From an uncultured Nitrospinota bacterium (GTDB taxonomy: Bacteria > Nitrospinota_A > UBA7883 > JAJRTC01), in the NCBI GenBank assembly GCA_964395915.1, contig CAYNDB010000002.1:10817-57323 (forward strand): DNA of 46,507 nt, given 5' to 3'. The notes beneath the pieces are model-generated. The model saw only the letters and a list, made by a program, of their open reading frames with translations. It ran no database searches and was not told the DNA's origin. Below, piece after piece: positions 2,461-25,872 of the stretch. The position numbers and the translations under genes were made by a program. Position 1 is the stretch's first letter. The number at the start of each line of letters is the position of its first letter.

Positions 2461-2470
2461 ACTATCTCTC

Positions 2471-3031: not shown

Positions 3032-3337
3032 AGTAAACTAAGCCTCTAATACCGGAGATTCAAATACATAACGAATAATATAGATTTTGCTCATGGTAAC
3101 ATTATTTTTATTAGCCGTCAGTTAAATATATAGAGATTAAATATGTGGGCCCCTCGAAATAACCATAAAGTTGTACATTCAGTAAATGTGCAATCTGCGT
3201 GTTAGATGTCCGTTCGCCAGAAAGGTTTCAGGAGTTTTTAAAAACATCTGATAAAACGCAAAAAGAAAAATATATCTGAATGGCTCTTTCGACCTTAGTG
3301 GCTGTATATTGTAAAAATAATAGAAGGAGGGAAAGAT

Positions 3338-9799: not shown

Positions 9800-10019
9800 C
9801 GTTACATTTCTTTTCTATTTCTCGCATAAGACGTAATGTCTCTTCCGCGACAGTTGTATCGAGCTTTTCAATGGCAAGCCCTGCATGAACAAGAATGTAG
9901 TCCCCGATATTTACGTTATCAAGGGCCAGCAGGCTTGCAGATTTTTTTACGCCATCAATCTCGGCCATGCAGGAAAACTCTGATATCTCAATTACCTTCA
10001 TAGGGACAGCCACGCACAT
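9786..10019 (-). CDS. hypC: Hydrogenase maturation chaperone HypC
   Basis: 77 aa. Begins with MCVAVPMKV, carrying the conserved essential Cys2. Confidence 0.9.
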   Translation of the reverse strand: MCVAVPMKVIEISEFSCMAEIDGVKKSASLLALDNVNIGDYILVHAGLAIEKLDTTVAEETLRLMREIEKKCNDEIS

Positions 10020-10021
10020 GA

Positions 10022-12331
10022 TTATCTTTCCTTTGATATTGCTTTTCTTGCTCCCGCAACCGCCTGTCCAAGCGAGATACCTCCGTCGTTCGGAGGCACA
10101 CGGCTGTGGCGAAACACTTGGAGCCCTTCAGACTCCAGCATCACCCCTAGCTTGTCTGAAAGATACCTGTTCTGAAACACTCCACCCGATAACGCTACGC
10201 TTCGAAGACCTGTTTGGCCGCTGATTCTTTTAATCATCTGACAAGCGCCTTCAGCGATGGTGTTGTGGAACATCGCCGACATTATGCCGATAGGAACGTT
10301 TTTCAGAGAATCCTCCACAAGCTTTTTAAAAACCGGATATATATCAAAAATAAATTTGTCATCCACCTTCACGATATTAACGGGGTAACTTTCCTTTATT
10401 CCCGTGGTCGCTATTGTTTCAAGCTCCATCGCCGCCTGACCTTCGAAAGACACTTTCCCTCGCAATCCGGTTAAAGCCGCCGCGGCGTCAAAAAGCCTTC
10501 CAACACCATGGGAATATGTTGTGTTCAACTTTTTTTCCACCATAATTTTTATCGTCTTAAGCTTTTCTGTGGTCACCTCATTCATCCATCTTACGGAAAG
10601 CTTAGGAATATTATCGCCATATAGCTCATGTAAAATGCCGACAGCTATCCGCCATGGCTCCTTTACCGCCACATCGCCACCGGGGAGCGGAACAGCGCTG
10701 GTATAACCCATCCGTTCATACCCACCCGCGTTACCGACAAAAAATTCGCCTCCCCAAATCGACCCATCGTCTCCATACCCCGTACCGTCAAAAATAACGC
10801 CGATAACTTCTTCGTCTAATGCGCCACGCTCCGCCAGTACCGAAACAAGATGCGCGTGATGATGCTGGACTTCCACTCGTTTGGACTCAGGAAAACTATC
10901 CCTCGCCCATTGAGAGCATGAGTAATCCGGATGTTTGTCGAAAGCGACGACAGAAAAATCCCTGACGTCCAGCATGTCAAAATAGCGTTCCATCGAAAAA
11001 CAGAAGTAGTCATACGATTTTTCGTATTTAAGATCGCCAATATGCGGGCTTATATAAGCGCGGTCTTCCTTTATGACACAAAAAGTGTTTTTCAGCTCTC
11101 CACCCACAGCCAGTGTTGTCGGATATTCACGGTCGAGCATAATGGGTATCGGCGCATATCCGCGCGAACGTCTTAACACGACGGGGCCATGGCTCATTGA
11201 AAGCTCGATAGAATCATCCGCCCGGTTATATATCGGCCTGTCGTGAACGAGAAAAGCGTCGGCGATTCCAGCAAGCCTCTCCCTGGCGTCTTTTTCGGTG
11301 TGAACTATCGGATCATCGCTTATGTTCGCGCTGGTCATAACGAGCGCATTGAAGTTTCCATCGGCCATAAGCAGGTAACTCAATGGAGTGTACGGCAACA
11401 TTATGCCGAGCTTTTTGTTGAAAGGGGCTACGCCTGACGGCATATTTTTCATCAGTTTTTGAACCAGGACAATTGGCCGTGAACGGCTTTTTAAAAGCTC
11501 TGCTTCGCTCTCAGAAATATCCGCATAAAGCTTTGCCCCATCCAACGAAGAACACATCAGCGCAAACGGTTTTTCATCCCGCAATTTTTTTCGTCGTAAG
11601 CGCATCACCGCGTTATTTTTATCAGCGTCCACTGCAAGGTGGTAGCCGCCAATACCCTTGATCGCAACGATTTTACCGGTAGCGAGAAGATCGATTGCCT
11701 TTGCAAGCGCGTTATTTTTTGTATCAATTACGTTAAACGACTCGTCCATAAGGCTTAACTGCGGCCCGCAAACATGGCAGGCCACAGGCTGCGCGTGAAA
11801 TCTGCGATCGGCCGGGTTCTCATATTCCTTCAGGCAGTCCGGGCACATCTGAAAATCCTTCATCGTAGTAAAAGGCCGGTCGTACGGAATGGATTTGATT
11901 ATCGTAAAACGTGGCCCGCAGTTCGTACAGTTAATGAAGGGATATCGATAACGCCGGTCGTTCGGATCGAACAGTTCATTAAGACAATCGGGACAAACAT
12001 CGCAATCGGGTGGAATCAAAGCTGTTTTCGATCCTTTATGATCGCTTTCCCTTATTTCAAAAGCGGAATCTTCGCCGCAACAAGCTTCATGTGAAGTCAC
12101 TTTGACGATATGTGAAAGGGGAGGGGAGAGGTCCGTCAGATCGCGCTCGAAAGCTTCGATATTTTCAATATCTCCTTCAACCTCAATATCGACTCCGGAG
12201 GAATTGTTCTCCACATAGCCTGTAAGGTTATGTTGTTTTGCAATACGATATATGAACGGTCGGAACCCTACGCCCTGCACGATTCCACGGACGTGTATAT
12301 GCTTGCGATATGCAAGCTGTTCATATTTCAT
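10022..12331 (-). CDS. hypF: Carbamoyltransferase HypF
   Basis: 769 aa. Has an acylphosphatase domain (VRGIVQGVGFRPFIY), two pairs of CxxC zinc fingers (CDVCPDC...CTNCGPR and CPDC...CHVCGP), then YrdC-like and Kae1-like domains. Confidence 0.93.
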   Translation of the reverse strand: MKYEQLAYRKHIHVRGIVQGVGFRPFIYRIAKQHNLTGYVENNSSGVDIEVEGDIENIEAFERDLTDLSPPLSHIVKVTSHEACCGEDSAFEIRESDHKGSKTALIPPDCDVCPDCLNELFDPNDRRYRYPFINCTNCGPRFTIIKSIPYDRPFTTMKDFQMCPDCLKEYENPADRRFHAQPVACHVCGPQLSLMDESFNVIDTKNNALAKAIDLLATGKIVAIKGIGGYHLAVDADKNNAVMRLRRKKLRDEKPFALMCSSLDGAKLYADISESEAELLKSRSRPIVLVQKLMKNMPSGVAPFNKKLGIMLPYTPLSYLLMADGNFNALVMTSANISDDPIVHTEKDARERLAGIADAFLVHDRPIYNRADDSIELSMSHGPVVLRRSRGYAPIPIMLDREYPTTLAVGGELKNTFCVIKEDRAYISPHIGDLKYEKSYDYFCFSMERYFDMLDVRDFSVVAFDKHPDYSCSQWARDSFPESKRVEVQHHHAHLVSVLAERGALDEEVIGVIFDGTGYGDDGSIWGGEFFVGNAGGYERMGYTSAVPLPGGDVAVKEPWRIAVGILHELYGDNIPKLSVRWMNEVTTEKLKTIKIMVEKKLNTTYSHGVGRLFDAAAALTGLRGKVSFEGQAAMELETIATTGIKESYPVNIVKVDDKFIFDIYPVFKKLVEDSLKNVPIGIMSAMFHNTIAEGACQMIKRISGQTGLRSVALSGGVFQNRYLSDKLGVMLESEGLQVFRHSRVPPNDGGISLGQAVAGARKAISKER

Positions 12332-12986
12332 GTGATTTCAGTCCCGTTAGAAACGAATACCACTCATCAAGACCTTCGCCTGAGGAAACAGACAATGTAA
12401 ACAAACGTATTTCAGGGTTAATATTTCTGGCGAGCTCAACACATTTATCGACATCGAAATCCACATATGGAAGAAGATCGGTTTTGGTAATAACCAGGGC
12501 TTTCGAGGCGCGGAACATATTTGGATATTTTGCCGGTTTGTCATCCCCTTCGGTAACTGACACCAGCGCCACTTTCATTTTTTCGCCAAGATCGTAGGAG
12601 GCGGGACATACAAGGTTGCCCACATTTTCTATCATAAGCAGGTGAATGGTGGTCAGATCGATGTGATCAAGCGCTTTCAGCGTCATGGACGCGTCCAGGT
12701 GGCAGGCGGACATTGTGTTAATTTGCGTTACTTGCGCTCCTGTTTTCGCTATTCGTCTGGCGTCATTATCGGTTTGCTGGTCTCCTTCGATGACTGCGAA
12801 ATTGATTTTGTCTTTGATCTCCGATATTGTCTTGACCAGCAAAGAGGTTTTCCCCGCTCCGGGTGAGCTTACAAAATTTAACGCCGTGACTTTGGTTTCC
12901 TTGAAAATCGCTCTGTTTATCACGGCTATCCTGTTGTTTTTTGTAAATACGTCCTTTTTTATTTCAATAACTGTCGGAGCTGTCAT
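12321..12986 (-). CDS. hypB: Hydrogenase nickel-incorporation GTPase HypB
   Basis: 221 aa. P-loop SSPGAGKTSLL, G-domain metal-site residues (SACH..., NLVCPA) and an ITKTD guanine motif. No His-rich or CxxCGC N-terminal extension. Confidence 0.9.
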   Translation of the reverse strand: MTAPTVIEIKKDVFTKNNRIAVINRAIFKETKVTALNFVSSPGAGKTSLLVKTISEIKDKINFAVIEGDQQTDNDARRIAKTGAQVTQINTMSACHLDASMTLKALDHIDLTTIHLLMIENVGNLVCPASYDLGEKMKVALVSVTEGDDKPAKYPNMFRASKALVITKTDLLPYVDFDVDKCVELARNINPEIRLFTLSVSSGEGLDEWYSFLTGLKSHEI

Positions 12987-13330
12987 GTTGTCTCCACCTC
13001 AATACTTTTCACAACAAGATCATCTCCCTGCAAGACGGTTGCAGGGCCAGAGCATTCCGGACAAACAAAATATTGGCTATCAGGACTGAACTCAAGTACA
13101 CATGCGGGACAGAGAGCCACGGCTGGAATCTTGTTCAACACAAGCCTGCTCCCCTCCGTAACGACGGCCTCTTTTGAGCAAGCTTCGTAGCAAAATTCCA
13201 GCGCGTCACAACTAACACCAGCCAAATCGCCAATATCGACTGTGACAGTTAACACCTTGAGCGCATTTTGGCTCAGGACGGATTCCTCGACAACAGCGAT
13301 AACGCTCATAGCGATTGACATTTCATGCAT
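12983..13330 (-). CDS. hypA: Hydrogenase nickel-insertion protein HypA
   Basis: 115 aa. Starts MHEMSIA (the MHE nickel site). Two CxxC pairs (CPAC...CPEC) form the zinc site. ATGA overlap with hypB. Confidence 0.9.
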   Translation of the reverse strand: MHEMSIAMSVIAVVEESVLSQNALKVLTVTVDIGDLAGVSCDALEFCYEACSKEAVVTEGSRLVLNKIPAVALCPACVLEFSPDSQYFVCPECSGPATVLQGDDLVVKSIEVETT

Positions 13331-13564
13331 TACGCAATACCCGCTTGCTCTGACACCCTGTTAATTATCTAGACAATAGTATGAAATAATATATCCGCAT
13401 TAATGCCAGATATACTATATCAATAGTATTGAACGTGACTGGCTCCCATTTTTTAGTTTGTTATTTTTTATTAATATAGGCCCTATTTAATTACTTTGGC
13501 GTATATTAACTAATAAGAGCGCTAGATATTCAGATATCCCTATGCTATATGCGGAGAGGATGTT

Positions 13565-14374
13565 ATGGGACCGGCGGACAATACTGCAACGGCTAACAAC
13601 GACATATACCTTGTTGTGAGAACTCGTTCCATCTTTGCGTGTCTCCTGCACTGGATATTATTCACATCTGTGGTAGTTCTTACGCTCACAGGGTTATACA
13701 TCGGCTACCCGTCATATTTTTACGGGCAGGGTGAAGCGTGGCAAGCGTCCACAATGGCTGATATCCGGACATATCATCTTTACGCGGCGCTTGCGCTGAT
13801 ATTCTCGATTTTCACCAGAATGTATCTTGCGTTTACAAAATCATGCAACAGGGATATGAAACAATTCCTTCCCACACCTAAAAATATAATCGGGGCGCTA
13901 CGTCTCGCAAAATTCTTTATAACTTTCAAAGGCCCCCACAAACATTACCGCTTTGTAAACCCGCTTGGGGGTATAGGCATTTTCACGATGTCGATACTAT
14001 TCCTCGTTCAAATTTTCACGGGGTTGGCGCTTTATCTTCCGGGAGCCAATCCAGACAGCTGGTGGTGGGCCATATGGATACAGCCTGTGGCGGAAAACCT
14101 CCTGGGAGGTTTGCAGGGGGTGCGTCTTATTCACCATATTGCTATGTATATATTGGCGGCGGTCGTAATCATTCATGTATATATGCAAATTTGGAAAACC
14201 AGCATGTACACGGAATCTGACATATCTTCAATAATTTCCGGATACAAAATATTCCCGTTAAGCCAGATAGGCCATTTCGACGATGTATACGGTATACGGC
14301 TGGACGATGCTCCGCCAAGCAAAGATGAGATGGAGAAAGAGTCTGAAATTACTATCGAAGCAAGATATAAATGA
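13565..14374 (+). CDS. Dihaem b-type cytochrome membrane subunit of [NiFe]-hydrogenase (HyaC/HydC/FdnI family), copy 1
   Basis: 269 aa with four predicted TM helices. Conserved His residues in TM1 (LLHW), TM2 (YHLY) and TM4 (IHH...IIHVY). RBS GGAGAGGA. Ends 20 bp upstream of the small subunit gene. Confidence 0.8.
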   Translation: MGPADNTATANNDIYLVVRTRSIFACLLHWILFTSVVVLTLTGLYIGYPSYFYGQGEAWQASTMADIRTYHLYAALALIFSIFTRMYLAFTKSCNRDMKQFLPTPKNIIGALRLAKFFITFKGPHKHYRFVNPLGGIGIFTMSILFLVQIFTGLALYLPGANPDSWWWAIWIQPVAENLLGGLQGVRLIHHIAMYILAAVVIIHVYMQIWKTSMYTESDISSIISGYKIFPLSQIGHFDDVYGIRLDDAPPSKDEMEKESEITIEARYK

Positions 14375-14394
14375 TCTGAATACTGGAGGGTATC

Positions 14395-15519
14395 ATGTGT
14401 CAAACAGGAGGATTGATCGGGCCTACGCGTGAGGAAAAGCTTGAGGCCCTTGGGAACCTTGACCGGCGGGATTTTATGATGTTTTGCGTTACGATCGCCG
14501 CCACGCTTGGGCTGAGCCCTTCGTTTATTCCTAAAATAGCGGAAGCTATAGAAAAGGCCGCCAGCAAACCTTCTGTGATATGGCTCCATTTCGCGGAATG
14601 TACCGGAGACTCCGAGGCTTTCCTCCGCTCGACATACCCATCCATTGAAGATTTGATTTTGAACATTCTCTCCATCGATTATCACGAGACCATCATGGCC
14701 CCGTCGGGCGATGCCGCGGAAGAGGCGCTGGCAAAAGCGATGAAGGATAACAAAGGTAAATATATTGCCGTGTGTGAAGGCGCCATTCCAATGGCCACCC
14801 CTCCGGGACCAGCGGGCAAACTCGGCTCTTACCTTACTCTCGGCAATAAAACAGGATTTGAGCTTGCAAAAGAAGTATGCTCGGACGCATTCGCTGTGAT
14901 GTGTGTAGGGACATGCTCTTCTTTTGGTGGTGTTCAGGCGCAGAGACCAAACCCCACAGGAGCGGTTGGAGTGGAGGACGCTATTGGAATCCCCACGCTT
15001 AAGATACCGGGATGCCCTCATAACGTTATCAACTCGGTCGCTTCAATAGTCAACTATCTCCTGCTGGGTTCACTGCCAGCGACAGACAGGCTGGGGCGCC
15101 CGCTTTTCGCATATGGCAAGCGGATACACGACACCTGCCCGCGAAGAGCGCATTTCGACGCGGGCCAATATGTGGAACAATTCGGCGACGAAGCTTCTAA
15201 AAGAAGGTGGTGTCTCTACAAGGTTGGATGCAAAGGTCCGCAGACCTATCACAACTGTTCGCAAGTTGGATACAACGACAACACCTCATGGCCCATTAAA
15301 GGCGGACACGGATGCATAGGATGTTCCGAGCCGAACTTTTGGGATGATATGCAACCCTTCTATGAGAGGCTGCCAAACGTGAGGTTACCGGGAGTTGAGG
15401 CTACTGCGGACAAGGTCGGCATGACGCTGGTCGGCGCCGCGGCGGCCGGAGCCGCGGGACATGCCGCATGGACAATATTCAACAGGAAAAAGTTCGACGA
15501 CACCTCCAAGGATGAATAA
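14395..15519 (+). CDS. [NiFe]-hydrogenase small subunit, Tat-exported, with a C-terminal membrane anchor
   Basis: 374 aa. Tat motif DRRDFMMF. Aligns by eye along the whole length to standard group-1 small subunits (WLHFAECTG-, GTCSSFGG, IPGCPHN, HDTCPR, CLYKVGCKGP, HNC, GHGCIGCSEPNFWD). Hydrophobic C-terminal helix VGMTLVGAAAAGAAGHAAWTIF. Confidence 0.93.
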   Translation: MCQTGGLIGPTREEKLEALGNLDRRDFMMFCVTIAATLGLSPSFIPKIAEAIEKAASKPSVIWLHFAECTGDSEAFLRSTYPSIEDLILNILSIDYHETIMAPSGDAAEEALAKAMKDNKGKYIAVCEGAIPMATPPGPAGKLGSYLTLGNKTGFELAKEVCSDAFAVMCVGTCSSFGGVQAQRPNPTGAVGVEDAIGIPTLKIPGCPHNVINSVASIVNYLLLGSLPATDRLGRPLFAYGKRIHDTCPRRAHFDAGQYVEQFGDEASKRRWCLYKVGCKGPQTYHNCSQVGYNDNTSWPIKGGHGCIGCSEPNFWDDMQPFYERLPNVRLPGVEATADKVGMTLVGAAAAGAAGHAAWTIFNRKKFDDTSKDE

Positions 15520-15537
15520 AAGGAAGAGAGGCGCGAC

Positions 15538-17202
15538 ATGGGTGAGAGGCACGTTATAGATCCTATTACCAGGATCGAGGGACATCTGAGGATAGAGATA
15601 GAGCTTGAAAACGGAAAGGTGAAAGACGCCTGGAGTTCCGGAACGCTTTGGCGGGGCTTTGAGGTGTTCCTTAAAGGGCGCGACCCGCGTGACGCATGGC
15701 TCATAACACAGCGGGTTTGCGGCGTATGCACCGAGGTGCACGCGCTCACATCCGTCAAATGTGTCGAGAACGCGGCCGGGATAAAAATTCCTGATAACGC
15801 GCGGCTTATACGCAACCTTATCCACGGCGCTCAATATCTGCACGATCATCCTGTGCATTTTTATCATCTGCACGCATTGGACTGGGTGGATGTGGTCTCG
15901 GCGCTTAAGGCCGATCCTAAAAAAACATCGGAGCTTACAAATTCCATCAACCCGAACGCTCCCAGAAGTGGCCCTGGCGATTTTGCGGTTGTGAAGGATA
16001 AGCTAAGCAAATTCGTTTCCGCAGGCCAGCTTGGGCCATTTACGAATGGATACTGGGGGCACCCGGCATATAAGCTGCCGCCGGAGGCGAACCTGATGGC
16101 TGTCGCCCACTATCTTACAGCGCTTGCGATGCAAAGCAGGATCGCCAGGATGCACGCTGTGTTTGGCGCGAAAAATCCGCATATACAAACGTACACCGTC
16201 GGCGGTGTGACGTGTATCAACGATCTTAACGCGGACAGGATCAGCGAGTTTCTGTTCATTCTTCGTGAAGCGAAAGATTTTATCGATAACGTTTATATCC
16301 CGGACGTACTGGCCGTCGCCCCTTTCTATCTTGACTGGGCCAAGCTCGGCGGAGGTGTGAAAAACTATCTGACGTATGGAATGTTCCCTCAAAAAGGTGG
16401 TGAGGAACCGGATAATTTATGGTTCCCGCGTGGCGTGATCCTGGACAGGGACCTTTCTAAAGTTCACCCGGTGGACGTAGACAAGATAACAGAGGATGTT
16501 ACTCACGCCTGGTACAAATATTCAAAGGACGAGCCGCTGCACCCAAGTGTTGGGGAGACAGACCCATGGTACACGGGAATAGAAACGGGCAAAGAAAATG
16601 GGAAATACTCGTGGCTGAAAACTCCGCGCTATGACGGAAAGGCCATGGAGGTGGGGCCACTTTCCAGGATGCTTGTCAACTACGCATCTGGACATGAATC
16701 GACAGTGCGTGAGGTAAATGGCGTACTCAAAGCGCTGGGAGTAGGGCCGGAGATACTTTTCTCCACGCTTGGCCGCACAGCCGCCAGAGCCATTGAAACA
16801 AAGATTATCGCTCATGAGATGGAAAACTGGGTGAACGAATTGCTTTCGAACATCAAGAAGGGTGATTTGAAAACATGTGTAGATTATCCGGCGCCATCAG
16901 TCGCAAAGGGGTTTGGCATGACAGAGGCTCCCCGCGGCGCGCTCGGCCATTGGATAGAAATCGTCGATGGAAAGATAAAGAACTATCAGCTGGTCGTGCC
17001 GACAACATGGAATGGATCACCGAGGGATAAAAACAATATACGGTCGGCGTTCGAAGAGTCGCTTATCGGGACACCTGTTATCGATCCGAAACAGCCGGTC
17101 GAGGTGTTGCGGACTATTCATTCGTTCGATCCGTGTCTTGCATGTTCGGTTCATATCATTGACCCAGATAATAATGAGACCTACACGGTAAAAGCCGTGT
17201 AG
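15538..17202 (+). CDS. [NiFe]-hydrogenase large (catalytic) subunit
   Basis: 554 aa. N-terminal RIEGHLRIE and RVCGVCTEVH (L1/L2 Ni-Fe ligands). C-terminal DPCLACSVH followed by a 15-residue tail that the endopeptidase would remove. The ligands are Cys, not Sec, so this is not a [NiFeSe] enzyme. Confidence 0.95.
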   Translation: MGERHVIDPITRIEGHLRIEIELENGKVKDAWSSGTLWRGFEVFLKGRDPRDAWLITQRVCGVCTEVHALTSVKCVENAAGIKIPDNARLIRNLIHGAQYLHDHPVHFYHLHALDWVDVVSALKADPKKTSELTNSINPNAPRSGPGDFAVVKDKLSKFVSAGQLGPFTNGYWGHPAYKLPPEANLMAVAHYLTALAMQSRIARMHAVFGAKNPHIQTYTVGGVTCINDLNADRISEFLFILREAKDFIDNVYIPDVLAVAPFYLDWAKLGGGVKNYLTYGMFPQKGGEEPDNLWFPRGVILDRDLSKVHPVDVDKITEDVTHAWYKYSKDEPLHPSVGETDPWYTGIETGKENGKYSWLKTPRYDGKAMEVGPLSRMLVNYASGHESTVREVNGVLKALGVGPEILFSTLGRTAARAIETKIIAHEMENWVNELLSNIKKGDLKTCVDYPAPSVAKGFGMTEAPRGALGHWIEIVDGKIKNYQLVVPTTWNGSPRDKNNIRSAFEESLIGTPVIDPKQPVEVLRTIHSFDPCLACSVHIIDPDNNETYTVKAV

Positions 17203-17215
17203 CCGGAGGTAACAT

Positions 17216-17908
17216 ATGCCACATAGATTTATATCACCGCAAAAAAAGAAGCTGGTTTACGTGCGGAATTTCACGAACCGGTTATTGCACTGGACTATGT
17301 TTTTTGCGGTAATGGTTCTGTTGCCGACAGGTTATTATATCGGTAATCCAACCGCCGTTTACGGGCAGGGTGAGCCAGTTCAGGCGTTTGTTATGGCCGA
17401 CATCAGGCTATACCATTTCTATGCCGCTATGGCTTTGGATGTAGCCATAATGATTCGTTTCTACCTTGCGTTTTTCAGTGTATACCACCGTGACTGGTAC
17501 GAAATAATACCAACACCTGCAAATATTTATGGCGCTCTAAAAGTCATCGGAAGTTATATAACATTCAAAAAGCCCCCGTTTTTTCGCCATACCGACCCGT
17601 TTGACGGGTTTATGTTTCTAACTTTACATCTGTTTATGGTTCTGCAACTTGTGACAGGATTCCAGCTCTATGTCCACGCTTTGCCAGGCGACTACTGGTT
17701 CGCGCAGCTTATTCATATGGGCACAGACTGGATAACATGGTTGCTGGGAAGCGATCAAACCGTACGGCTTGTTCATCACATGATGCTCTGGATCATGATT
17801 GCAGGAATAATAGTTCACGTATATATCCAGGTAATCAAGACTGTGATATGGCGGGACGGACATATTTCAACCATTATCGGCGGATATAAATACCGCGATG
17901 TAAAATGA
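17216..17908 (+). CDS. Dihaem b-type cytochrome membrane subunit of [NiFe]-hydrogenase (HyaC/HydC/FdnI family), copy 2
   Basis: 230 aa and clearly paralogous to 13565..14374. For example MADIRLYHFYAAMAL...RFYLAF here matches MADIRTYHLYAALAL...RMYLAF there, and VRLVHHM...IIVHVYIQV matches VRLIHHI...VIIHVYMQI. RBS GGAGG. Confidence 0.85.
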   Translation: MPHRFISPQKKKLVYVRNFTNRLLHWTMFFAVMVLLPTGYYIGNPTAVYGQGEPVQAFVMADIRLYHFYAAMALDVAIMIRFYLAFFSVYHRDWYEIIPTPANIYGALKVIGSYITFKKPPFFRHTDPFDGFMFLTLHLFMVLQLVTGFQLYVHALPGDYWFAQLIHMGTDWITWLLGSDQTVRLVHHMMLWIMIAGIIVHVYIQVIKTVIWRDGHISTIIGGYKYRDVK

Positions 17909-18426
17909 CAAAACCAGCCAAGCCTCGTATCGTGATTATTGGCATAGGCAATATTTTCCTGTCCGATGAAGGGGTAGGCGTTCACGCTATAAGTAAACTT
18001 TTAAATGAATGGGAGTTCCCCTCAAACGTTGAAGTATATGATGGTGGTGTTACAGGAATGATGGGGCTCCTGCCAATTATTGAAGACACGGATCACCTGA
18101 TAGTAATCGACGTGGTAAACTCGGGCGATCCGCCCGGCTACATCCGCACATACACACTGGGTGATTTCAGGCTTGTCATGCCAAAGAAACTTTCCGCGCA
18201 TGATATCGGTTTTTTAGAATGCATCGCCATTGCTGAAATCAACGGGAAAACTCCGAAATCTGTGACTGTCATCGGTATTAAACCTGTGGATATAGAAACT
18301 CCCCGAAACGTTTTGAGCGATATTGTTGATTCAAAGCTTGCCGAAATAACGGAAATAACAATCGGCGAGTTGCAAAAACTGGGAGCGATAGCCGTTAAAC
18401 GGCAATTTAGTTCGCCATCTTTTTAA
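17905..18426 (+). CDS. Hydrogenase maturation endopeptidase (HyaD/HybD/HupD family)
   Basis: 173 aa. N-terminal VIIGIGNIFLSDEGVGVHA, an internal IDVV motif and an SAHDIG motif, all typical of this family. ATGA overlap with the preceding cyt b gene. Confidence 0.9.
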   Translation: MTKPAKPRIVIIGIGNIFLSDEGVGVHAISKLLNEWEFPSNVEVYDGGVTGMMGLLPIIEDTDHLIVIDVVNSGDPPGYIRTYTLGDFRLVMPKKLSAHDIGFLECIAIAEINGKTPKSVTVIGIKPVDIETPRNVLSDIVDSKLAEITEITIGELQKLGAIAVKRQFSSPSF

Positions 18427-18504
18427 AAAATTTGTCAAAGCGTAGAGAAATACTCACAATGACTGTATATTAGTGTCAGGTAGGCCTTTAACGGAGTATC
18501 TCTA

Positions 18505-19638
18505 ATGTTTGCATTGGCAAGAGTTATACGAATGATTTCTGTTTTGGCGCTCGTAATTACCATTGCCTTTTCGCCAAGCTCTGTCCGCGCCGATGAAAAA
18601 GAGTCTTATACAAGCTCAAATGTCTGTGGCGCATGTCATGTGGAAATATTCGAGAGTTGGCGTAAATCTTTACACGCTCTGTCATACAATAACCAGGTGT
18701 TTTTAACGGCATATCGTGAAGCGTATCTTGAAACCAATGGCTCCGCGAAATATTTCTGTCTGAAATGTCACGCCCCGACATATCTTGTTACAGGAGACGT
18801 GGATGCGGCTTATCCGATAACCAGGGAGGGTGTCACATGCGATTTTTGCCATACGATTGTGGGCGTTGACGTCACCAATACAGAATCGCCTTTCAAGCTC
18901 GATGTCGGCGGCGCTAAACATTCGTCACTGAAAAACGCAAAGTCGGAGGCCCATTCAACCTCATACGCAGACTGGTTTAATAAATCGGAAATGTGCGGCG
19001 CCTGCCACGAAGTTACGAACATGAACGGAGTAAGGACCGGAAGCACATACAGCGAATGGAAATCTTCCAGTTACGCGGCTGATGGCGTCCAGTGCCAGCA
19101 TTGTCATATGGCTCCTGTTCCAGGTAACGTTGTAGACCCGTCAGTTCAAGATAGCTCCAAAAATGTTTTCCATGAACATAGCCTCTCGCACAATATGGAT
19201 CAGATGAAAAACGCAATCAAGGTTGAAATAGTAGGAAAAGAAAAAATGGCGGATGGGCGCTATATCGTTGACGTCGCTATTACAAATAAAAAAGCGGGGC
19301 ATAACATACCAACAGGCTCTCCGTCACGCAAGCTGGCTCTGGAAGTCAGACTCTCCGGCGAAAACTATACTGAGTCTGTTCAGCTTAAGAAATTCGGTAA
19401 GGATATAGTCGATAAATCTGGAAACGCTCTTACGATGGACGGCGAGGTCATGATGAGGGGCGCAAAGGTCACAGGAAACAGCTCACTTAAACCGAAGGAG
19501 CGCAGGGTGGAGCGATTTATGTTCAGCGCGGCGCCAAGGGGCGAGGTAAAAGTGTCCGCCAGAGCTTTCCTCATTTATCGTCACGTTGTTACCGTTGAAG
19601 AAAGTACCTTGATTCAGATGGGCTCAGCGGTTAAATAA
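18505..19638 (+). CDS. Secreted pentahaem cytochrome c with a non-haem C-terminal domain
   Basis: 377 aa with a signal peptide ending SVRA. Five CxxCH motifs (CGACH, CLKCH, CDFCH, CGACH, CQHCH), all in the first ~205 residues. The C-terminal ~150 residues have no haem motif. Confidence 0.85.
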   Translation: MFALARVIRMISVLALVITIAFSPSSVRADEKESYTSSNVCGACHVEIFESWRKSLHALSYNNQVFLTAYREAYLETNGSAKYFCLKCHAPTYLVTGDVDAAYPITREGVTCDFCHTIVGVDVTNTESPFKLDVGGAKHSSLKNAKSEAHSTSYADWFNKSEMCGACHEVTNMNGVRTGSTYSEWKSSSYAADGVQCQHCHMAPVPGNVVDPSVQDSSKNVFHEHSLSHNMDQMKNAIKVEIVGKEKMADGRYIVDVAITNKKAGHNIPTGSPSRKLALEVRLSGENYTESVQLKKFGKDIVDKSGNALTMDGEVMMRGAKVTGNSSLKPKERRVERFMFSAAPRGEVKVSARAFLIYRHVVTVEESTLIQMGSAVK

Positions 19639-19759
19639 CCCCAAACAGGTCGTTAAGTTACTTACAAAAAATAAGAGGTGAATAGGCTTTCGCCGCTTCC
19701 CCATCGGGATGCTGGGTCGAGGTCCGACACCGCAAATTGTAAATATAATTATCATTTAT

Positions 19760-19800
19760 TAAGACTTCCCGTGTAGACCAAGTCTTATTTAATATATTTA
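19760..19800 (+). terminator. Weak hairpin plus T-rich tail between the pentahaem and 11-haem cytochrome genes
   Basis: TAAGACTT (19760..19767) pairs with AAGTCTTA (19780..19787) and is followed by TTTAATATATTT. The stem is AT-rich, so predicted stability is low. Confidence 0.3.
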
Positions 19801-19863
19801 CGTATTCCTTTCAGCGGTTTTTTTAAGTCGGGCCTATATTTTATATAGAGCATAACTGGCGCA

Positions 19864-21900
19864 ATGGGGAAAGCGAAAATGAATCGCTCCATTATAATCA
19901 TTCTGCTGGTTGCCGCGCTATTCCAGGTAACTGTGGCATCCGGTTCAGAAAACTGTTTCCAATGCCACTCCGATCCAGAACTTAAAATGGAAAGAAATGG
20001 TAAAACGATTTCCCTATATGTAGACAAAAATAAATTCATCAAGTCAGCTCATGGCGATTTTGATTGCGCCGCTTGTCATCTTGAAGTTAACCCCGAAAAG
20101 ATACCACACTTCGCGGATTATCAAAGAGTGGAGTGCGGCTCCTGTCATGAGGAAGCGCAAGAATCATATTCGAAAGGGTCGCACGGAGCGGCGCTGAAAA
20201 GGGAGGTGAAAGACGCTCCTGATTGCGTTACCTGCCATGGCAAGCACAATATACTAGCTTCCACAGAACGTTCATCGAAAACCAACAGGATGAATATACC
20301 CTCTTTGTGCGGGGAGTGTCATCGAAAAAAAGGTAAGGCTGTGGAGGCTACTGGACGGACTGCTTTGGGAGTTTATAGCGACTATTCTTTCAGCGTTCAC
20401 GGCAAGGGACTTCGTGAAAAGGGACTTCTGCCGTCAGCGATTTGTACAGACTGCCACAACAGCCATAAAGCTATTAGGAGCAGAGACTCTCTTTCCCCTG
20501 TTAACAGGCTGAATATCGATTCCACATGCGGGCGGTGCCACCTTGGTATTCTTGAAAAGCTTGAAAAGAGCATTCATTATACAGTGAATAAAAATGACGC
20601 AGGGAAATATCCGACATGCTCAGACTGCCATTCCGCTCATCAAATTTCCGAAGTAAAACGAGGGAAGTTCATCATGGAGGTACGCTACCAGTGTGGAGTT
20701 TGTCACGCCAAGCTTTCAGAAACCTATCTTGAAACAATTCATGGAAAAGCTTTCCAACTCGGTTATCTTAAAGCGGCTTCATGCTCCAACTGTCATGAAT
20801 CACATATGACACTTGCGGTTAATAACTCTGATTCCAGCGTTGGGAAAAAAAATATTTTAAAAACATGCCGAAAATGTCACGAAAGGGCAACATATAAATT
20901 TACCCAATACCTGACACACGCCACGCACAAGGACAAGGAGCGATATCCGGCGCTTTACTACGCATACTGGAGCATGACTACTTTGCTATTAAGTGTTTTC
21001 GGTTTTTTTGGTCTCCACACCCTGTTGTGGTTGCCCAGATCATTAGCGCACAGAAAAAAACTTAAAAAAGAAGTGAAAATCGGACGATACATCTTGCGTT
21101 TCACCCTTGCCGATCGAATAACTCATCTATTTGTCGTTACAAGCTTCCTTCTTTTGGCGTTAACCGGTATGGTTCTGAAATTTTCCTCAATGCCATGGGC
21201 TTTGTGGCTCTCCGATATTATGGGCGGCCCTGCTGTAGCCAGAATCATTCATAGAATATGCGCGGTTATTACTTTCGGTTACTTTTTTTATCATCTTTGG
21301 GGTCTTGCTAAAAAGAAACGTGACAAAGGGACAACCTGGGCGAAATTTATTTTTGGTGAAAACTCTATTTTCCCCAACCTGCATGATGTCAAAGAATTCT
21401 GGGGTACAATCAAATGGTTCGTTGGAGCTGGGCCAAGACCTTTGTATGGACATTGGACATACTGGGAAAAATTTGACTACTTTGCCGTATTCTGGGGTGT
21501 GGCTATTATTGGGCTAAGTGGATTGATGCTCTGGTTTCCCGAACAGTTTACTATTCTGTTCCCCGGTTGGGTAATCAACGTCGCTACAATAATACATAGC
21601 GAAGAGGCCTTACTTGCGACAGGTTTTATTTTTGTTGTCCATTTTTTCAACACGCACTTAAGGCCAGAGTCTTTTCCTATGGATAAAATCATTTTCACTG
21701 GAGCCATTCCTGAGGAGAGGCTTGCGCTTGAGCGACCTTCCGAATACGAAGAGCTCAAGAAAAGTGGAGAAATAGATAAACTTGTTGTCGAGGCGCCATC
21801 GGAGAAGTGGGATAAATACATTTATATTATAGGCGGGGCGTTTCTGGTAATCGGCATTGCGCTGGCTCTTCTAATAATTTATTCCACACTTGCGGACTGA
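19864..21900 (+). CDS. Fusion protein: 11-haem periplasmic cytochrome c domain plus C-terminal HydC/FdnI-type dihaem-b membrane domain (CbcL-like)
   Basis: 678 aa with a signal peptide. Eleven CxxCH motifs lie in residues ~30-340 (CFQCH, CAACH, CGSCH, CVTCH, CGECH, CTDCH, CGRCH, CSDCH, CGVCH, CSNCH, CRKCH). These are followed by 5-6 TM helices with conserved His (ITHLF, IIHRI, IIHSEE, VVHFFNTH). An alternative start at the ATG at 19879 has the better RBS (GGGGAAAG). Confidence 0.85.
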   Translation: MGKAKMNRSIIIILLVAALFQVTVASGSENCFQCHSDPELKMERNGKTISLYVDKNKFIKSAHGDFDCAACHLEVNPEKIPHFADYQRVECGSCHEEAQESYSKGSHGAALKREVKDAPDCVTCHGKHNILASTERSSKTNRMNIPSLCGECHRKKGKAVEATGRTALGVYSDYSFSVHGKGLREKGLLPSAICTDCHNSHKAIRSRDSLSPVNRLNIDSTCGRCHLGILEKLEKSIHYTVNKNDAGKYPTCSDCHSAHQISEVKRGKFIMEVRYQCGVCHAKLSETYLETIHGKAFQLGYLKAASCSNCHESHMTLAVNNSDSSVGKKNILKTCRKCHERATYKFTQYLTHATHKDKERYPALYYAYWSMTTLLLSVFGFFGLHTLLWLPRSLAHRKKLKKEVKIGRYILRFTLADRITHLFVVTSFLLLALTGMVLKFSSMPWALWLSDIMGGPAVARIIHRICAVITFGYFFYHLWGLAKKKRDKGTTWAKFIFGENSIFPNLHDVKEFWGTIKWFVGAGPRPLYGHWTYWEKFDYFAVFWGVAIIGLSGLMLWFPEQFTILFPGWVINVATIIHSEEALLATGFIFVVHFFNTHLRPESFPMDKIIFTGAIPEERLALERPSEYEELKKSGEIDKLVVEAPSEKWDKYIYIIGGAFLVIGIALALLIIYSTLAD

Positions 21901-21937
21901 TAAAAAGCTCTCCGATAGTTAATGCGAAAACGGTGGA

Positions 21938-22144
21938 TTATTTGAACATCCCCTTATGTATCGCCTCGAGAATCACCAGAGCCACCCAGAACAGAAACCC
22001 GCCCAACAACAACAGGCCGCCAACATTCAGGGTCACCACAAGTTTGAACGGTGTGTTGGAGACAAGAGACAGGCTAAGCGCAATTGTACCCACGATATTG
22101 AAAGCTATAGCCATCTTCATTAGAAACGGTATTTTTTCTTTCAT
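21938..22144 (-). CDS. Small two-TM membrane protein, function unknown
   Basis: 68 aa with two hydrophobic helices. Its ATG lies 1 nt after the stop of the NapC/NirT-like gene, which suggests translational coupling. I recognise no motif. Confidence 0.5.
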   Translation of the reverse strand: MKEKIPFLMKMAIAFNIVGTIALSLSLVSNTPFKLVVTLNVGGLLLLGGFLFWVALVILEAIHKGMFK

Positions 22145-22145
22145 C

Positions 22146-22745
22146 TTACCAATCCTCCTCTGAAGCCAGCAAATGCCCCATGTCGTGACAACCGCTGGAC
22201 AAACATGAGCGCCTGCCGTCCATTATCTGATCGGACAGACCATCACCCAGCATATGAGGCAGGGCTTCAATAAAATTCCGCGCAACACCATGACATCGCA
22301 GGCAATTCCTGTTTTCATATTTTTCATAGAGCTTAATTTTTTCAGGGGCGCCTTTTACGTAATAAACATAAAGATGTTTTACCCCTCTTAACTTGGCTTG
22401 CACAGGGCCGAACATGGTGTATTGAGTATGGCACGCATAACATGCTTCCTCCTGCGGCACCCAGTTGTTCTGGAAATGAATAGCCGATAGCGGCTCATCG
22501 TCGTCTACATTGAGACTTTCAACGTATTTGGTCATAACGTGGCATTTTGCGCAGAAGCTTACCTTTTTCACCCTTTCAAGGTCTTGCGACACAACTCCCA
22601 AACCCCAGAAAAGAGGGAAAACGCCCAAAGTGAAAAAAGCCAGGAACTTTTTTGCCCTTACGGTGAGACGCCGCCATTCTCCTATGAGCATGAATGAGAT
22701 GAAAACGATGTTGCCCAGCGCAAAAAATATCAGGATTATAGTCAT
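22146..22745 (-). CDS. Membrane-anchored NapC/NirT/NrfH-like multihaem cytochrome c (three CxxCH plus one Cx4CH)
   Basis: 199 aa with two N-terminal hydrophobic helices. Haem motifs CAKCH, CYACH and CLRCH, plus C-terminal CLSSGCH (a Cx4CH encoded at 22185..22205). Confidence 0.75.
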   Translation of the reverse strand: MTIILIFFALGNIVFISFMLIGEWRRLTVRAKKFLAFFTLGVFPLFWGLGVVSQDLERVKKVSFCAKCHVMTKYVESLNVDDDEPLSAIHFQNNWVPQEEACYACHTQYTMFGPVQAKLRGVKHLYVYYVKGAPEKIKLYEKYENRNCLRCHGVARNFIEALPHMLGDGLSDQIMDGRRSCLSSGCHDMGHLLASEEDW

Positions 22746-22833
22746 TATTTTACTCCTTCCAAAAAGAAGGATTGGTTTTAATAACCATCTTAGCTAATAA
22801 TTTGCAGGATATAATCTCAACATTAAGCCAATA

Positions 22834-23178
22834 TTATTGCGCTGGCGGTGTCTTGAGGCTCAAAAGCCACATCTCCAGTTTTTTATACTCTTCCTTGCTT
22901 CCTTTAAAACGTTTAAGGTGTTTTTTCCCATTCAATTTGATTTTCTTTCGTAAATACTTTACGAGAAAATCACTATCATGCTTTAGGCCAATATCTGAAA
23001 GGTCAGGGGATTCCATTAACTTTTTTTCCCCATTTATACCATGCGCCTTGACGGTATGACATTTGACGCACCCTTTCTCATGGAAAATCTTTTCACCGGA
23101 AGTGTCGGCAAATACGGAAGACGGTAAAACAAACAAGGAATAAAATACTATAGACACTGCAAGAGTTGCCACTTTCAT
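22834..23178 (-). CDS. Secreted monohaem class-I cytochrome c
   Basis: Single CVKCH motif. The ORF track starts it at 23208. The ATG at 23178 has a GGAGG 8 nt upstream and yields a clean signal peptide, MKVATLAVSIVFYSLFVLPSSVFA. Confidence 0.75.
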   Translation of the reverse strand: MKVATLAVSIVFYSLFVLPSSVFADTSGEKIFHEKGCVKCHTVKAHGINGEKKLMESPDLSDIGLKHDSDFLVKYLRKKIKLNGKKHLKRFKGSKEEYKKLEMWLLSLKTPPAQ

Positions 23179-23265
23179 GCCATTTCCCTCCTTTGAAAAG
23201 GAAATCAAATAGAAGAGACTTTTCTACTTATAAATATAAGCCCTTAATTTTAAAAATGGCGAAAA

Positions 23266-25872
23266 TTAGTCCTGCAAAGCTTCGGTGGACTCAACGACGG
23301 TAAACCGAAATTTCATATCTGAATAGTCGACCCTGACCGTGTTTCCTTCTTTGAGCTTCCCTTCGATGATCCTATAGGAAAGCTCGTCGAGTATATCGGT
23401 CTGGATAAGCCGCTTGACAGGCCTGGCGCCAAAAACTTCATCATAACCAGCTTCCGCGAGATGGGCGAGCGCGGCGTCGGTCACGTCGATAGCGATGCCT
23501 TTACCCTGCAATCTATCCGCCACTCGTTTGAGCTGCAATCTGACAATTTCCTTAAGTTCGTCATGCGTCAGTTTTTGGAAAATAATGATATCATCGATCC
23601 TGTTTATAAATTCTGGTCGGAATGCCTGACCTATAATAGTTCGCACCGCAGACTCCTGCGCCTTCCGGTCATCATGATATTCAGCGATTTCTCGTGAACC
23701 CAGGTTGCTGGTCATGATGACGACGGTATTGGTGAAATCAATGGTTCTACCTTTGCCGTCGGTCAAACGGCCATCATCGAGCGCCTGCAACAATGTATTA
23801 AATATTTCAGGATGCGCCTTTTCCACTTCGTCCAGCAGGATCACACTATACGGATGACGGCGAACCGCTTCTGTAAGCTGTCCACCCTCTTCATAACCTA
23901 CGTATCCGGGAGGAGAGCCGATAAGCCTTGCCACAGAATGTTTCTCCTGATATTCACTCATATCGATACGGATCATCGATTTTTCAGTATCAAAAAGAAA
24001 TTCCGCCAACGTCTTTGCCAGCTCCGTTTTACCAACACCTGTGGGCCCAAGGAAAAGAAACGAGCCTATGGGCCGGTTTTCGTCCTGTATACCGGCTCGG
24101 CTTCTTCGCACAGCTCGCGACACGGCGGATATCGCCTCTTTTTGGCCGATAACACGTTCTCCCAGTTTCTCTTCCATTTTTATCAGCCTGTCGCTCTCTT
24201 CGGCCAACATTTTTGATACGGGAATACCGGTCCACGAGGATACTACCGCGGCGATATCTTCTTCTGTCACCTCCTCACGAAGTATTTTTTGGTCGGATTG
24301 AATAGACGCGAGCTTTTCCTGCGCCTCTCCAATCTCTTTTTCTCTTGCCGGAATTTCTCCATATTGTATTTCGGCCACTCTTTGAAGGGCGCCTTCGCGC
24401 TCGGCCCGCTCCGCTTCCTGTTTTAAGCGGTCTATCTCCTTAGTCGAATTTTTTATCGTGTCGATTATCTTTTTTTCATTTTGCCAATGCGCCTCGATTT
24501 CAGAAAAATTTTCACGCATATCCGCCAGTTCTTTTTCCAGTTCATGTAATCTTTTTCGGGCGTCGACGTCATCATCACTCTCCTGCTTGAGCGCTTCCCG
24601 TTCTATTTCCAGTTGTCGGATTTTGCGTAATATACGGTCGATCTGTTCGGGGTTGGAGTCTATCTCGATCTTAAGCCTGCTGGCGGACTCGTCCATAAGA
24701 TCGATGGCCTTGTCCGGTAAGAATCTGTCGGCGATATATCGATCTGAAAGTGTGACTGCCGCGACAATGGCGTTATCACGAATACGAACCCCGTGATGCG
24801 CCTCGTATTTGTCCTTAATACCACGCAAAATGGATATGGCGTCTTTTACCGATGGCTCTTCGACATTCACAGGCTGAAACCTGCGCTCCAGCGCGGCGTC
24901 TTTTTCTATCTGCTGACGATATTCCTTTATCGTAGTGGCTCCTATACATCGCAACGATCCTCTGGCAAGAGCCGGTTTTAACAGGTTTCCAGCGTCCATC
25001 GCGCCTTCCGCGGCCCCTGCGCCGACTATAGTGTGCAACTCGTCTATAAAAAGAATTATCTCTCCATTGGAGTTCTCAACCTCGTTTAATACCGCTTTCA
25101 GGCGCTCCTCGAACTCGCCACGGTATTTTGAGCCGGCCAGCAATTGCCCAAGGTCCAGCGAGAGAAGCTTTTTGTTCTTTAAAACGTCAGGAACATCCTG
25201 GTCGACGATTTTTTTCGCCAACCCTTCGGCTATGGCGGTTTTGCCTACGCCAGGCTCACCTACCAGCACAGGGTTGTTTTTCGTCCGGCGCGATAGTATC
25301 TGCATGACGCGGCGAATCTCGTCGTCACGGCCGATTACCGGGTCGATTTTGCCGTCAGCGGCCATTTTTGTAAAATCGTGTGTATATTTTTCGAGCGCCT
25401 GATACGTTCCTTCGGGGTCCTGGTTTACCACCCTCTGGCCCCCCCGGATTTCAGCAAGATGAGACATAACGCTGTCACGGTCTACGGCCACTATTTTTTG
25501 TATCTCATCTCGCGCAATAAGAGCGAGAAAAAGATGTTCGACCGAAACATATTCATCGTGCAATTTCCCGGCTTCAGCAAAAGCGTCGTCGAAAACTGTT
25601 TTTAATCCATGCGAAATATACGCTTTATCCGCTCCACCGGAAACGGATGGTAAATCGCGCAAAACTTTTTCAATATCTGTGGAAACTTTCCGTGGATCGA
25701 TCTCATTCTTGCTCAGGAGCGATGGAACCACACCCCCAGCCTGTCCGACCAGAGCATGCAGAAGATGAGCCGGCGTGATCTCCTGATGGTTCATGGCGGA
25801 AGCCAGGTTCATCGAATCCTGAACCGCCTCAGCCGCTTTATTTGTGAATTTGTTAAAATCCATGTCAATCAA
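23266..25872 (-). CDS. clpB: ATP-dependent disaggregase chaperone ClpB
   Basis: 868 aa. Clp N-domain, two AAA+ modules ([13 protein letters not shown] and [12 protein letters not shown]) and a long coiled-coil M-domain between them. Confidence 0.95.

Follow-up and report, generated by a model that had tools for sequence, protein, structure and literature searches.

A redox loop is the established model for the HydABC and FdnGHI families, and the prototypical hydrogenases of Desulfovibrio reduce cytochrome c3. We know of no cultured members of the non-nitrite-oxidising Nitrospinota, and to our knowledge their energy metabolism is known from gene inventories only. In a phylum-wide genome survey, the group-1 hydrogenases of the Nitrospinota classes UBA7883 and UBA9942 are assigned to HydDB group 1b and called O2-sensitive (PMC10839748). 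Here we analysed a hydrogenase locus in a 46,507-nucleotide (nt) stretch of contig CAYNDB010000002.1 (assembly GCA_964395915.1), which belongs to an uncultured Nitrospinota bacterium of class UBA7883; the whole stretch is hereafter called the window. Its genes for the small and large [NiFe]-hydrogenase subunits, hydS and hydL, lie between two dihaem cytochrome b genes, cytb1 and cytb2, and are followed by genes for a pentahaem cytochrome c (mh5) and for an 11-haem cytochrome c fused to a cytochrome b-like membrane domain (mh11b).

The arrangement cytb1-hydS-hydL-cytb2 is a conserved unit and a peculiarity of the Nitrospinota. For the hydrogenase survey, one genome per species was scanned and the 80 loci closest to the HydL of the window were examined; in the comparison of Nitrospinota layouts, these HydL-based loci were joined by three more that were reached via cytb1 homologues. 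The nine closest loci, with HydL identities of 67-83%, all come from Nitrospinota or Nitrospinota-like metagenome-assembled genomes (MAGs). All 12 Nitrospinota loci had a cytb1 homologue, and all nine loci in which both flanks are visible had both cytochrome b genes; the gene order was cytb1-hydS-hydL-cytb2 throughout, except in locus L007. Directly upstream of hydS and on the same strand is where cytb1 lies in 11 of the 12 relatives, as in the window, often at a spacing of 20-45 nt (about 250 nt in L002 and L090). The cytb1 homologue of L007 is found some 1.8 kb downstream in the opposite orientation, and in every locus cytb1 is found within 3 kb of the hydrogenase genes. L007, one of the more distant Nitrospinota relatives, derives from a Nitrospinales MAG with 69% HydL identity, in which a DmsABC-like operon (7792-14629, minus strand) converges on the hydrogenase operon.

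Outside the Nitrospinota, the layout was not found. The next relative, a locus from a Spirochaetia MAG (L012, 62% HydL identity), has the textbook order of small subunit, large subunit, cytochrome b and protease, with a single cytochrome b. In the Desulfobacterota loci (about 60% HydL identity), which consist of the small subunit, the large subunit and a protease, tblastn found no cytochrome b. All of the 68 other group-1 loci contained one detectable cytochrome b or none. A search of the open-access literature for group-1 hydrogenase layouts with two cytochrome b genes returned nothing relevant, and the accessible parts of the phylum-wide survey make no mention of a second cytochrome b subunit of the Nitrospinota hydrogenase (PMC10839748). 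The layout with two cytochrome b genes around hydSL therefore appears to be undescribed.

Both cytochromes b resemble hydrogenase subunits. Against the curated hydrogenase cytochrome b model TIGR02125 (cut-off 121.5 bits), cytb1 scored 130.6 bits, above the cut-off, and cytb2 117.5 bits, just under it. The cytb2 gene occupies the textbook HydC/HupC position after hydL, and its product aligns to E. coli HyaC (4gd3_A) over 212 residues. The four haem-ligand histidines, which hold the two haems in HydC/FdnI-type proteins, are conserved in both, and cytb1, unlike cytb2, is extended at its C-terminus by about 40 residues. In a neighbour-joining tree, cytb1 formed a Nitrospinota-only clade, sister to cytb2 together with verrucomicrobial hydrogenase cytochromes b. 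In a search of 5.8 billion proteins, the cytb1 homologues with at least 43% identity made up about 60 clusters, and all named clusters are from the Nitrospinota; outside this clade, the identity fell to 35% or less. Among the Nitrospinota homologues, the identities were 44-66% for cytb1 and 44-74%, mostly 62-74%, for cytb2. Since cytb1 and cytb2 are only about 37-43% identical to each other and both are retained, they stem from an old duplication of which both copies were kept.

The catalytic subunits carry the expected motifs. HydL is of the [NiFe] type, with cysteine and not selenocysteine, and contains the Ni-binding motifs RVCGVCTEVH and DPCLACSVH; the 15 residues after the latter constitute the C-terminal extension for proteolytic maturation. 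HydS has a twin-arginine translocation (Tat) motif (RRDF), three iron-sulfur (FeS) cluster motifs and a C-terminal membrane anchor, through which the alignment to C. necator HoxK extends as far as residue 371. The best solved relative of both subunits is the Desulfovibrio vulgaris Miyazaki F enzyme, with 660 bits for HydL (1h2a_L), which outscored the group 1e, 1d and 1c structures, and 323 bits for HydS (1h2a_S). By these features, the enzyme is predicted to be a membrane-bound, periplasm-facing group-1 [NiFe] uptake hydrogenase. Its probable assignment to group 1b is indirect, as it follows from the prototypical PDB matches and from the classification of relatives by HydDB in the survey (PMC10839748).

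In a by-eye reading of the alignment to 1h2a_S, the ligands of the medial and distal clusters are complete. The proximal-cluster motif reads C-T-G-D (residues 69-72, 14599-14610), so that Asp72 replaces the second cysteine and three cysteines are kept. This aspartate is kept in 12 of 12 Nitrospinota loci, some of them with A for G or T for S nearby. L012 of the Spirochaetia and three loci from Deferribacteres have it too, and the verrucomicrobial and acidobacterial loci have asparagine at this position. We considered the aspartate as a new feature and dropped this idea, because the same substitution has been described for group 1f, some 1b and 1h (PMC5364354). For its O2 insensitivity, the C. 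necator enzyme of group 1h needs the proximal aspartate (PMC5364354; PMC11023054). Since the ligand is known from an O2-insensitive enzyme, the assumption that the Nitrospinota enzymes are simply O2-sensitive is weakened, and the aspartate may leave room for 1f-like properties.

The genes of the region are listed in Table 1. The preliminary description of this DNA, made by reading the sequence, had placed nine genes in 13565-23208; all of them are present there according to open reading frames (ORFs), motifs and profiles, and its count of 21 c-type haem motifs was confirmed as 20 CXXCH and one CX4CH. It had also listed three HydC/FdnI-type domains. All three were found, in cytb1, cytb2 and mh11b, but the third is only a remote match, since the membrane domain of mh11b reached 24 bits with PF01292, under the gathering score of 30.1.

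Table 1. Genes of the hydrogenase region and of the adjoining hyp cluster, with positions in the window.
Feature	Position	Strand	Evidence
cytb1, dihaem cytochrome b, 269 aa	13565-14374	+	PF01292 (Ni_hydr_CYTB) E=1.5e-22
HydS, [NiFe] small subunit, 374 aa	14395-15519	+	TIGR00391, 392 bits
HydL, [NiFe] large subunit, 554 aa	15538-17202	+	PF00374, 753 bits
cytb2, dihaem cytochrome b, 230 aa	17216-17908	+	PF01292 E=1.2e-20
HyaD/HybD-type maturation endopeptidase	17905-18426	+	PF01750, TIGR00072
mh5, periplasmic pentahaem cytochrome c	18505-19638	+	5 CXXCH
mh11b, 11-haem cytochrome c fused to FdnI/HydC-like dihaem b domain	19864-21900	+	11 CXXCH, Pfam/NCBIfam domains
68-aa ORF, two predicted transmembrane helices	21938-22144	-	translation, hydropathy
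NapC/NirT/NrfH-like membrane cytochrome c	22146-22745	-	PF03264; 3 CXXCH + 1 CX4CH
Monohaem class-I cytochrome c, signal or anchor segment	22834-23208	-	PF00034 28.9 bits; one CXXCH
hypE	7687-8721	-	Pfam
hypD	8693-9799	-	Pfam
hypC	9786-10019	-	read by translation, start MCVAVP
hypF	10022-12331	-	Pfam
hypB	12321-12986	-	Pfam
hypA	12983-13330	-	Pfam

The core of the hydrogenase operon is tightly packed, its intergenic gaps measuring 20, 18 and 13 nt and the protease gene overlapping cytb2 by 4 nt. The gaps then widen to 78 nt between the protease gene and mh5 and to 225 nt between mh5 and the first ATG of mh11b. The junction of hydrogenase, mh5 and mh11b is genuine and not an assembly artefact, because two other public assemblies span it (14943-20044 and 16908-19893) at 99.9% identity. 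On the minus strand, divergent from the structural operon, hypABFCDE provides a complete [NiFe] maturation set at 7687-13330; this divergent arrangement recurs in L088, the closest relative with a long contig. The monohaem and NapC-like genes, on the strand opposite to the hydrogenase, converge on the plus-strand cluster. At the left end of the window (205-3031, minus strand), a protein of the molybdopterin-oxidoreductase family (751 amino acids (aa)) is preceded by a five-haem QrcA-like cytochrome, which scored 84 bits with NF041781, under the model cut-off. The two appear to begin a quinone-interacting complex of the Qrc/ACIII type, the remainder of which would lie beyond the left edge of the window. 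A further monohaem cytochrome c lies at 3299-3664 on the plus strand, opposite to these Qrc/ACIII-like genes.

For mh5, an AlphaFold2 (AF2) model (pLDDT 90.4, pTM 0.83) predicted a C-terminal immunoglobulin-like beta-sandwich domain after the five-haem domain. In Foldseek, the model matched Thermochromatium tepidum c552 (5ZE8), a low-potential pentahaem cytochrome, over the whole chain (E=2.3e-18, TM 0.66/0.65) at 19% sequence identity; by this model, mh5 has the fold of the PHC, ExtKL and T. tepidum c552 family. T. tepidum c552 and Geobacter ExtKL have been placed together among pentahaem cytochromes of unresolved function (PMC11976967). With the NCBIfam ExtKL model NF040886, mh5 scored 78 bits against a cut-off of 250; by this profile, it is classed as a relative of ExtKL and not as an ExtKL equivalog. 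Homologues of mh5 are common in the Nitrospinota and Nitrospirota.

Concerning mh11b, the start predicted by the gene caller at 19879 (673 aa, as P0001; preceded by GGGAAAG) is the probable one, more convincing than the ATG at 19864. Its 11 CXXCH motifs fall between residues 31 and 339, at positions 31, 68, 91, 121, 149, 194, 222, 252, 277, 307 and 335, and all are invariant among 18 homologues, as are H421, H463, H578 and H593. The motif positions agree nearly residue for residue with those of proteins catalogued in Table S2 of PMC6295460, e.g. OIR15077.1 and the 11-haem PAW67162.1, whose motifs lie at 32, 69, 90, 119, 148, 192, 220, 250, 275, 309 and 337. Members of the CbcL/MtrH/MtoC family are defined by a signal peptide, an N-terminal multihaem c domain with 3-23 CXXCH motifs and a C-terminal HydC/FdnI-like domain; they have mostly six transmembrane helices and are usually flanked by other c-type cytochromes (PMC6295460). 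The features of mh11b match this family of quinol:cytochrome c (or quinone-reducing) oxidoreductases, to which it is predicted to belong. Within the Ni_hydr_CYTB family, its cytochrome b domain is a remote member only. Besides the weak PF01292 score, the membrane domain gave partial matches to the NCBIfam FdoI/FdnI models. In the AF2 model of mh11b, the mean pLDDT was 56 (about 63-80 in the membrane part) and the haem domain was unusable; from this low-confidence model, the membrane part matched FdnI (1kqf_C) in Foldseek with TMt 0.76. About six transmembrane helices were read by eye, in agreement with the AF2 helices and with hydropathy, although not all of the six were resolved by the hydropathy script.

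More than 3,600 homologues of mh11b were found. The best are FCB-group proteins (Calditrichota, Bacteroidales, Krumholzibacteria and Eiseniibacteria) of about 925 aa with 51-56% identity, and none in the protein search is closer than 56%. Most of the homologues (P0002-P0120; L093-L172) are of this longer type, about 925 aa with 19 haems, in which some 260 residues of the haem module have been duplicated internally, the copies being 35% identical; in length and motif count, they match catalogued Bacteroidetes and Ignavibacteria entries (PMC6295460). The idea that mh5 is the detached N-terminal module of these long homologues was rejected: the extra 250 or so residues are the haem-module duplication, with which mh5 cannot be aligned.

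On the minus strand, the NapC-like protein scored 34.5 bits with PF03264, above the gathering score of 24.1, and fell far below the cut-offs of the more specific models (NrfH TIGR03153, 43 bits vs 134; NapC/NirT, about 20 bits vs more than 300). It has two N-terminal hydrophobic segments, and its fourth haem motif is the CX4CH. The monohaem gene lies upstream of it on this strand. The 68-aa ORF, which the preliminary description had not listed, begins 1 nt past the stop codon of the NapC-like gene; it has no match in Pfam and may encode a small subunit of this minus-strand unit.

We then compared the surroundings of the hydrogenase and of the cytochromes in relatives. Neither mh5 nor mh11b was syntenic with the hydrogenase in the six relatives having at least 3 kb of downstream sequence, and in none of the relatives was a close homologue of the cytochromes seen near the hydrogenase. 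After the protease gene or cytb2 there are gyrase genes in L088, two-component regulators in L090 and beta-oxidation genes in L005. In L089, the hydrogenase operon with its two cytochrome b genes is followed at 17497-20879 by thioredoxin-like, monohaem cytochrome c, SoxY, SoxZ and SoxA genes, which suggests that lineages place differing periplasmic electron-transfer modules beside this hydrogenase. A motif scan of L002-L010 for ORFs with at least two CXXCH found none except in L007. L088-L090 were covered by Pfam gene tables, which place a c554-like cytochrome in L088 at roughly 7 kb upstream and list the monohaem and SoxA-type cytochromes downstream in L089. In L007, hydS and a gene for a 17-haem cytochrome (334-2484, minus strand) are transcribed divergently, and beside the latter gene an mh11b-like gene is represented by its 3' end (2-289, plus strand).

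From the side of mh11b, 80 metagenome loci with homologues (1.03 Mb, up to 10 kb on each flank) were surveyed. None of the 80 had hydS, hydL or a hydrogenase cytochrome b within the available flanks, and neither had L001. In one locus, L152, the mh11b homologue adjoins hypD and hypFBA (13251-18828), with no hydrogenase structural genes in the available flank; it is the sole one of the 80 with hyp genes. A further multihaem ORF was found within 3 kb of the mh11b homologue in 51 of the 80 loci, so a periplasmic cytochrome as neighbour is the normal context of this family, hydrogenase or not. The three contexts of mh5 homologues that we examined were unrelated and lacked respiratory genes, and in the MAG of L002 the mh5 homologue and the hydrogenase are on different contigs. 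In composition, mh5 (GC 0.47, third-position GC (GC3) 0.49) and mh11b (0.44/0.44) are inside the spread of the other genes of the window, giving no clear sign of recent transfer. By gene order, mh5 and mh11b beside the hydrogenase are a lineage-specific arrangement and not a conserved operon design.

These results divide the gene order whose co-conservation the preliminary description proposed to examine. The cytb1-S-L-cytb2 part recurs in the Nitrospinota and is absent from the 68 other group-1 loci, and the preliminary description was right to call cytochrome b genes on both sides unusual. The mh5 and mh11b part is not syntenic. The view that the multihaem genes and the hydrogenase form one co-evolved conduit was thus not borne out from either the hydrogenase or the cytochrome side; the six relatives and the 80 mh11b loci fit the alternative it had itself allowed for, that the cytochromes are simply neighbouring respiratory genes.

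We consider it probable that the region holds three neighbouring respiratory units, not one machine. The first (13565-18426 with the divergent hypABFCDE) would be a Tat-exported hydrogenase anchored by the C-terminal helix of HydS. H2 would be oxidised by periplasmic HydSL; from there the chain of three FeS clusters would deliver the electrons to a dihaem cytochrome b for the reduction of (mena)quinone on the cytoplasmic side, in a redox loop of the HydABC/FdnGHI type. Both cytb1 and cytb2 would anchor this enzyme in the membrane, either as alternatives or assembled together. The second (18505-21900) would combine mh11b, as a quinol:cytochrome c oxidoreductase of the CbcL/MtrH/MtoC type, with mh5 as its low-potential periplasmic partner, and would most likely carry electrons from the quinone pool to periplasmic or extracellular acceptors, with the reverse direction possible. 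The third (21938-23208, minus strand), comprising the NapC/NrfH-like and monohaem cytochromes and the small membrane protein, would be separate. If the second unit oxidises quinol, H2 could feed it via the quinone pool in this organism, and such a functional link between H2 and the multihaem cytochromes is plausible in this one organism. The identities of the genes, the conservation of the two cytochrome b genes, the missing synteny of the cytochromes and the families to which they are assigned come from the comparisons themselves; we infer which of the cytochromes b is bound by the enzyme, in which direction electrons run through mh11b and whether the genes are co-transcribed.

Several observations weigh against the division into three units. 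The mh5 and mh11b genes are on the same strand as the hydrogenase, directly after the protease gene, with no convincing terminator between. No consensus terminator was found in the AT-rich gap of 225-240 nt (19639-19878); a promoter and terminator scan of 13200-23400 stayed at chance level (15 vs 17.2 and 14 vs 11.5 expected from shuffles), and an Rfam scan of the whole window had no match, hence no known riboswitch or small RNA in this gap. Co-transcription of the hydrogenase, mh5 and mh11b is possible on this basis. In addition, the adjacency of hydrogenase and multihaem genes has arisen at least twice in the Nitrospinota in non-homologous arrangements, because L007 also has its 17-haem gene and mh11b-like fragment, differently arranged. 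Finally, cytb1 may serve another partner, because the cytb1 homologue of L007 is the last gene of the DmsABC-like operon, which otherwise encodes a molybdopterin oxidoreductase, a 4Fe-4S protein, DmsC and a Pyr_redox_2 protein.

Such observations could be read in other ways. If the genes from cytb1 to mh11b formed one operon for a single dedicated conduit, the electrons from H2 would be split between quinone, via cytochrome b, and a path from HydS through mh5 to the haems of mh11b, the step from HydS to mh5 being analogous to the reduction of cytochrome c3 in Desulfovibrio; mh11b would then be a Qrc-like quinone reductase or an exit to extracellular acceptors. The common strand with gaps of 78 and 225 nt, the junction reproduced in three assemblies and the multihaem genes beside the hydrogenase of L007 fit this proposal, as do the Qrc/ACIII-like module 11 kb away and the likeness of HydL and HydS to the c3-dependent enzymes of D. 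vulgaris Miyazaki F and D. gigas and to Desulfobacterota S-L-protease loci lacking cytochrome b. We nevertheless regard it as rather doubtful: synteny is missing in the six relatives, 0 of 80 mh11b loci have hydrogenase structural genes, mh5 homologues stand alone, and a soluble cytochrome acceptor is unnecessary because HydS has a membrane anchor and two cytochrome b partners. Moreover, the AT-rich 225-nt gap could hold a promoter of mh11b's own. A more far-reaching proposal, which we think unlikely, is that the locus represents a distinct group-1 subclass, in which an Asp-ligated HydSL with two dihaem cytochromes b, acting as a heteromeric four-haem module or as anchors that can be exchanged to suit different quinones or redox conditions, feeds two respiratory branches; here, one branch would be hard-wired to, and co-transcribed with, a CbcL-type exit, so that H2 would reduce periplasmic or extracellular acceptors.

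The role of cytb1 itself can also be questioned. Rather than being a hydrogenase subunit, it could have been recruited as the membrane anchor or quinone site of another periplasmic redox enzyme and travel with the locus. This would suit the L007 homologue, which ends a minus-strand DmsABC-like operon and is not upstream of hydS, the faster evolution of cytb1 (44-66% identity vs mostly 62-74% for cytb2), its C-terminal extension, carried by cytb1 alone, and the gap of about 250 nt to hydS in L002 and L090. What makes it improbable is that cytb1 immediately precedes hydS, in the same orientation, in the window and in 11 of 12 relatives, that it scores above the curated TIGR02125 cut-off and that it lies no more than 3 kb from the hydrogenase genes in every locus. 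That one cytochrome b gene is a decaying, functionless duplicate is hardly credible: the score of cytb2 slightly under TIGR02125 (117.5 vs 121.5 bits) is the sole point in favour, but both genes are intact with all four haem-ligand histidines, both are kept across a clade whose HydL identity goes down to 67%, and their identity of about 40% speaks for an old duplication with both copies retained.

For the non-nitrite-oxidising Nitrospinota, the conserved second cytochrome b bears on how H2 oxidation is coupled to the quinone pool, and, in view of the Asp-ligated proximal cluster, one may ask if their enzymes are as O2-sensitive as assumed. For this organism, the position of the hydrogenase beside a CbcL-type module leads to the prediction that periplasmic or extracellular acceptors are reduced in an H2-dependent way. 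More generally, a dense cluster of redox genes in one genome is weak evidence for a dedicated conduit; such caution is warranted because half of the apparent island dissolves on comparison with relatives. What is new is apparently the hydrogenase variant with two cytochromes b, and the hydrogenase type, the cytochrome families of mh5 and mh11b and the aspartate ligand are known.

Compared with known systems, the locus combines features of several. Like Desulfovibrio HynAB (group 1b) with cytochrome c3 and Qrc, it has 1h2a as the top structures, Desulfobacterota relatives at about 60%, multihaem cytochromes and a Qrc/ACIII-like module nearby. Unlike HynAB, the enzyme has a membrane anchor and cytochrome b subunits, and because of these it can, by prediction, reach quinone without c3 and Qrc; the cluster has no gene for a tetrahaem c3. 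With T. tepidum c552 (5ZE8), mh5 shares the five haems and the C-terminal beta-sandwich (TM 0.66), but it differs from c552 and ExtKL in its low similarity (19% identity; ExtKL 78 vs 250 bits). Like CbcL (GSU0274), MtrH and MtoC (Zacharoff 2016; Zhong and Shi 2018, PMC6295460), mh11b joins a multihaem domain at the N-terminus to a HydC/FdnI-like membrane domain with conserved histidines at the C-terminus, and its haem spacing is nearly identical to that of the catalogued 11-haem members of about 700 aa. CbcL itself differs in having 9 haems in 619 aa, and the closest relatives of mh11b (about 55%) in being 19-haem, roughly 925-aa FCB proteins with an internal duplication; unlike the other family members examined, mh11b alone adjoins hydrogenase structural genes. 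Close counterparts are also the membrane-bound S-L-cytochrome b systems, i.e. W. succinogenes HydABC, E. coli Hyd-1 and the C. necator membrane-bound hydrogenase, with which the locus shares a Tat-exported, C-terminally anchored HydS, standard Ni motifs in HydL, a four-His dihaem cytochrome b after hydL, a HyaD-type protease, hyp genes and the expected H2:quinone redox loop. It departs from them in S and L sequences closest to the soluble, c3-dependent Desulfovibrio enzymes, in a proximal motif C-x-x-D in place of C-x-x-C (or of C-x-C-C in group 1d), and in a second, paralogous cytochrome b gene upstream of hydS, retained clade-wide.

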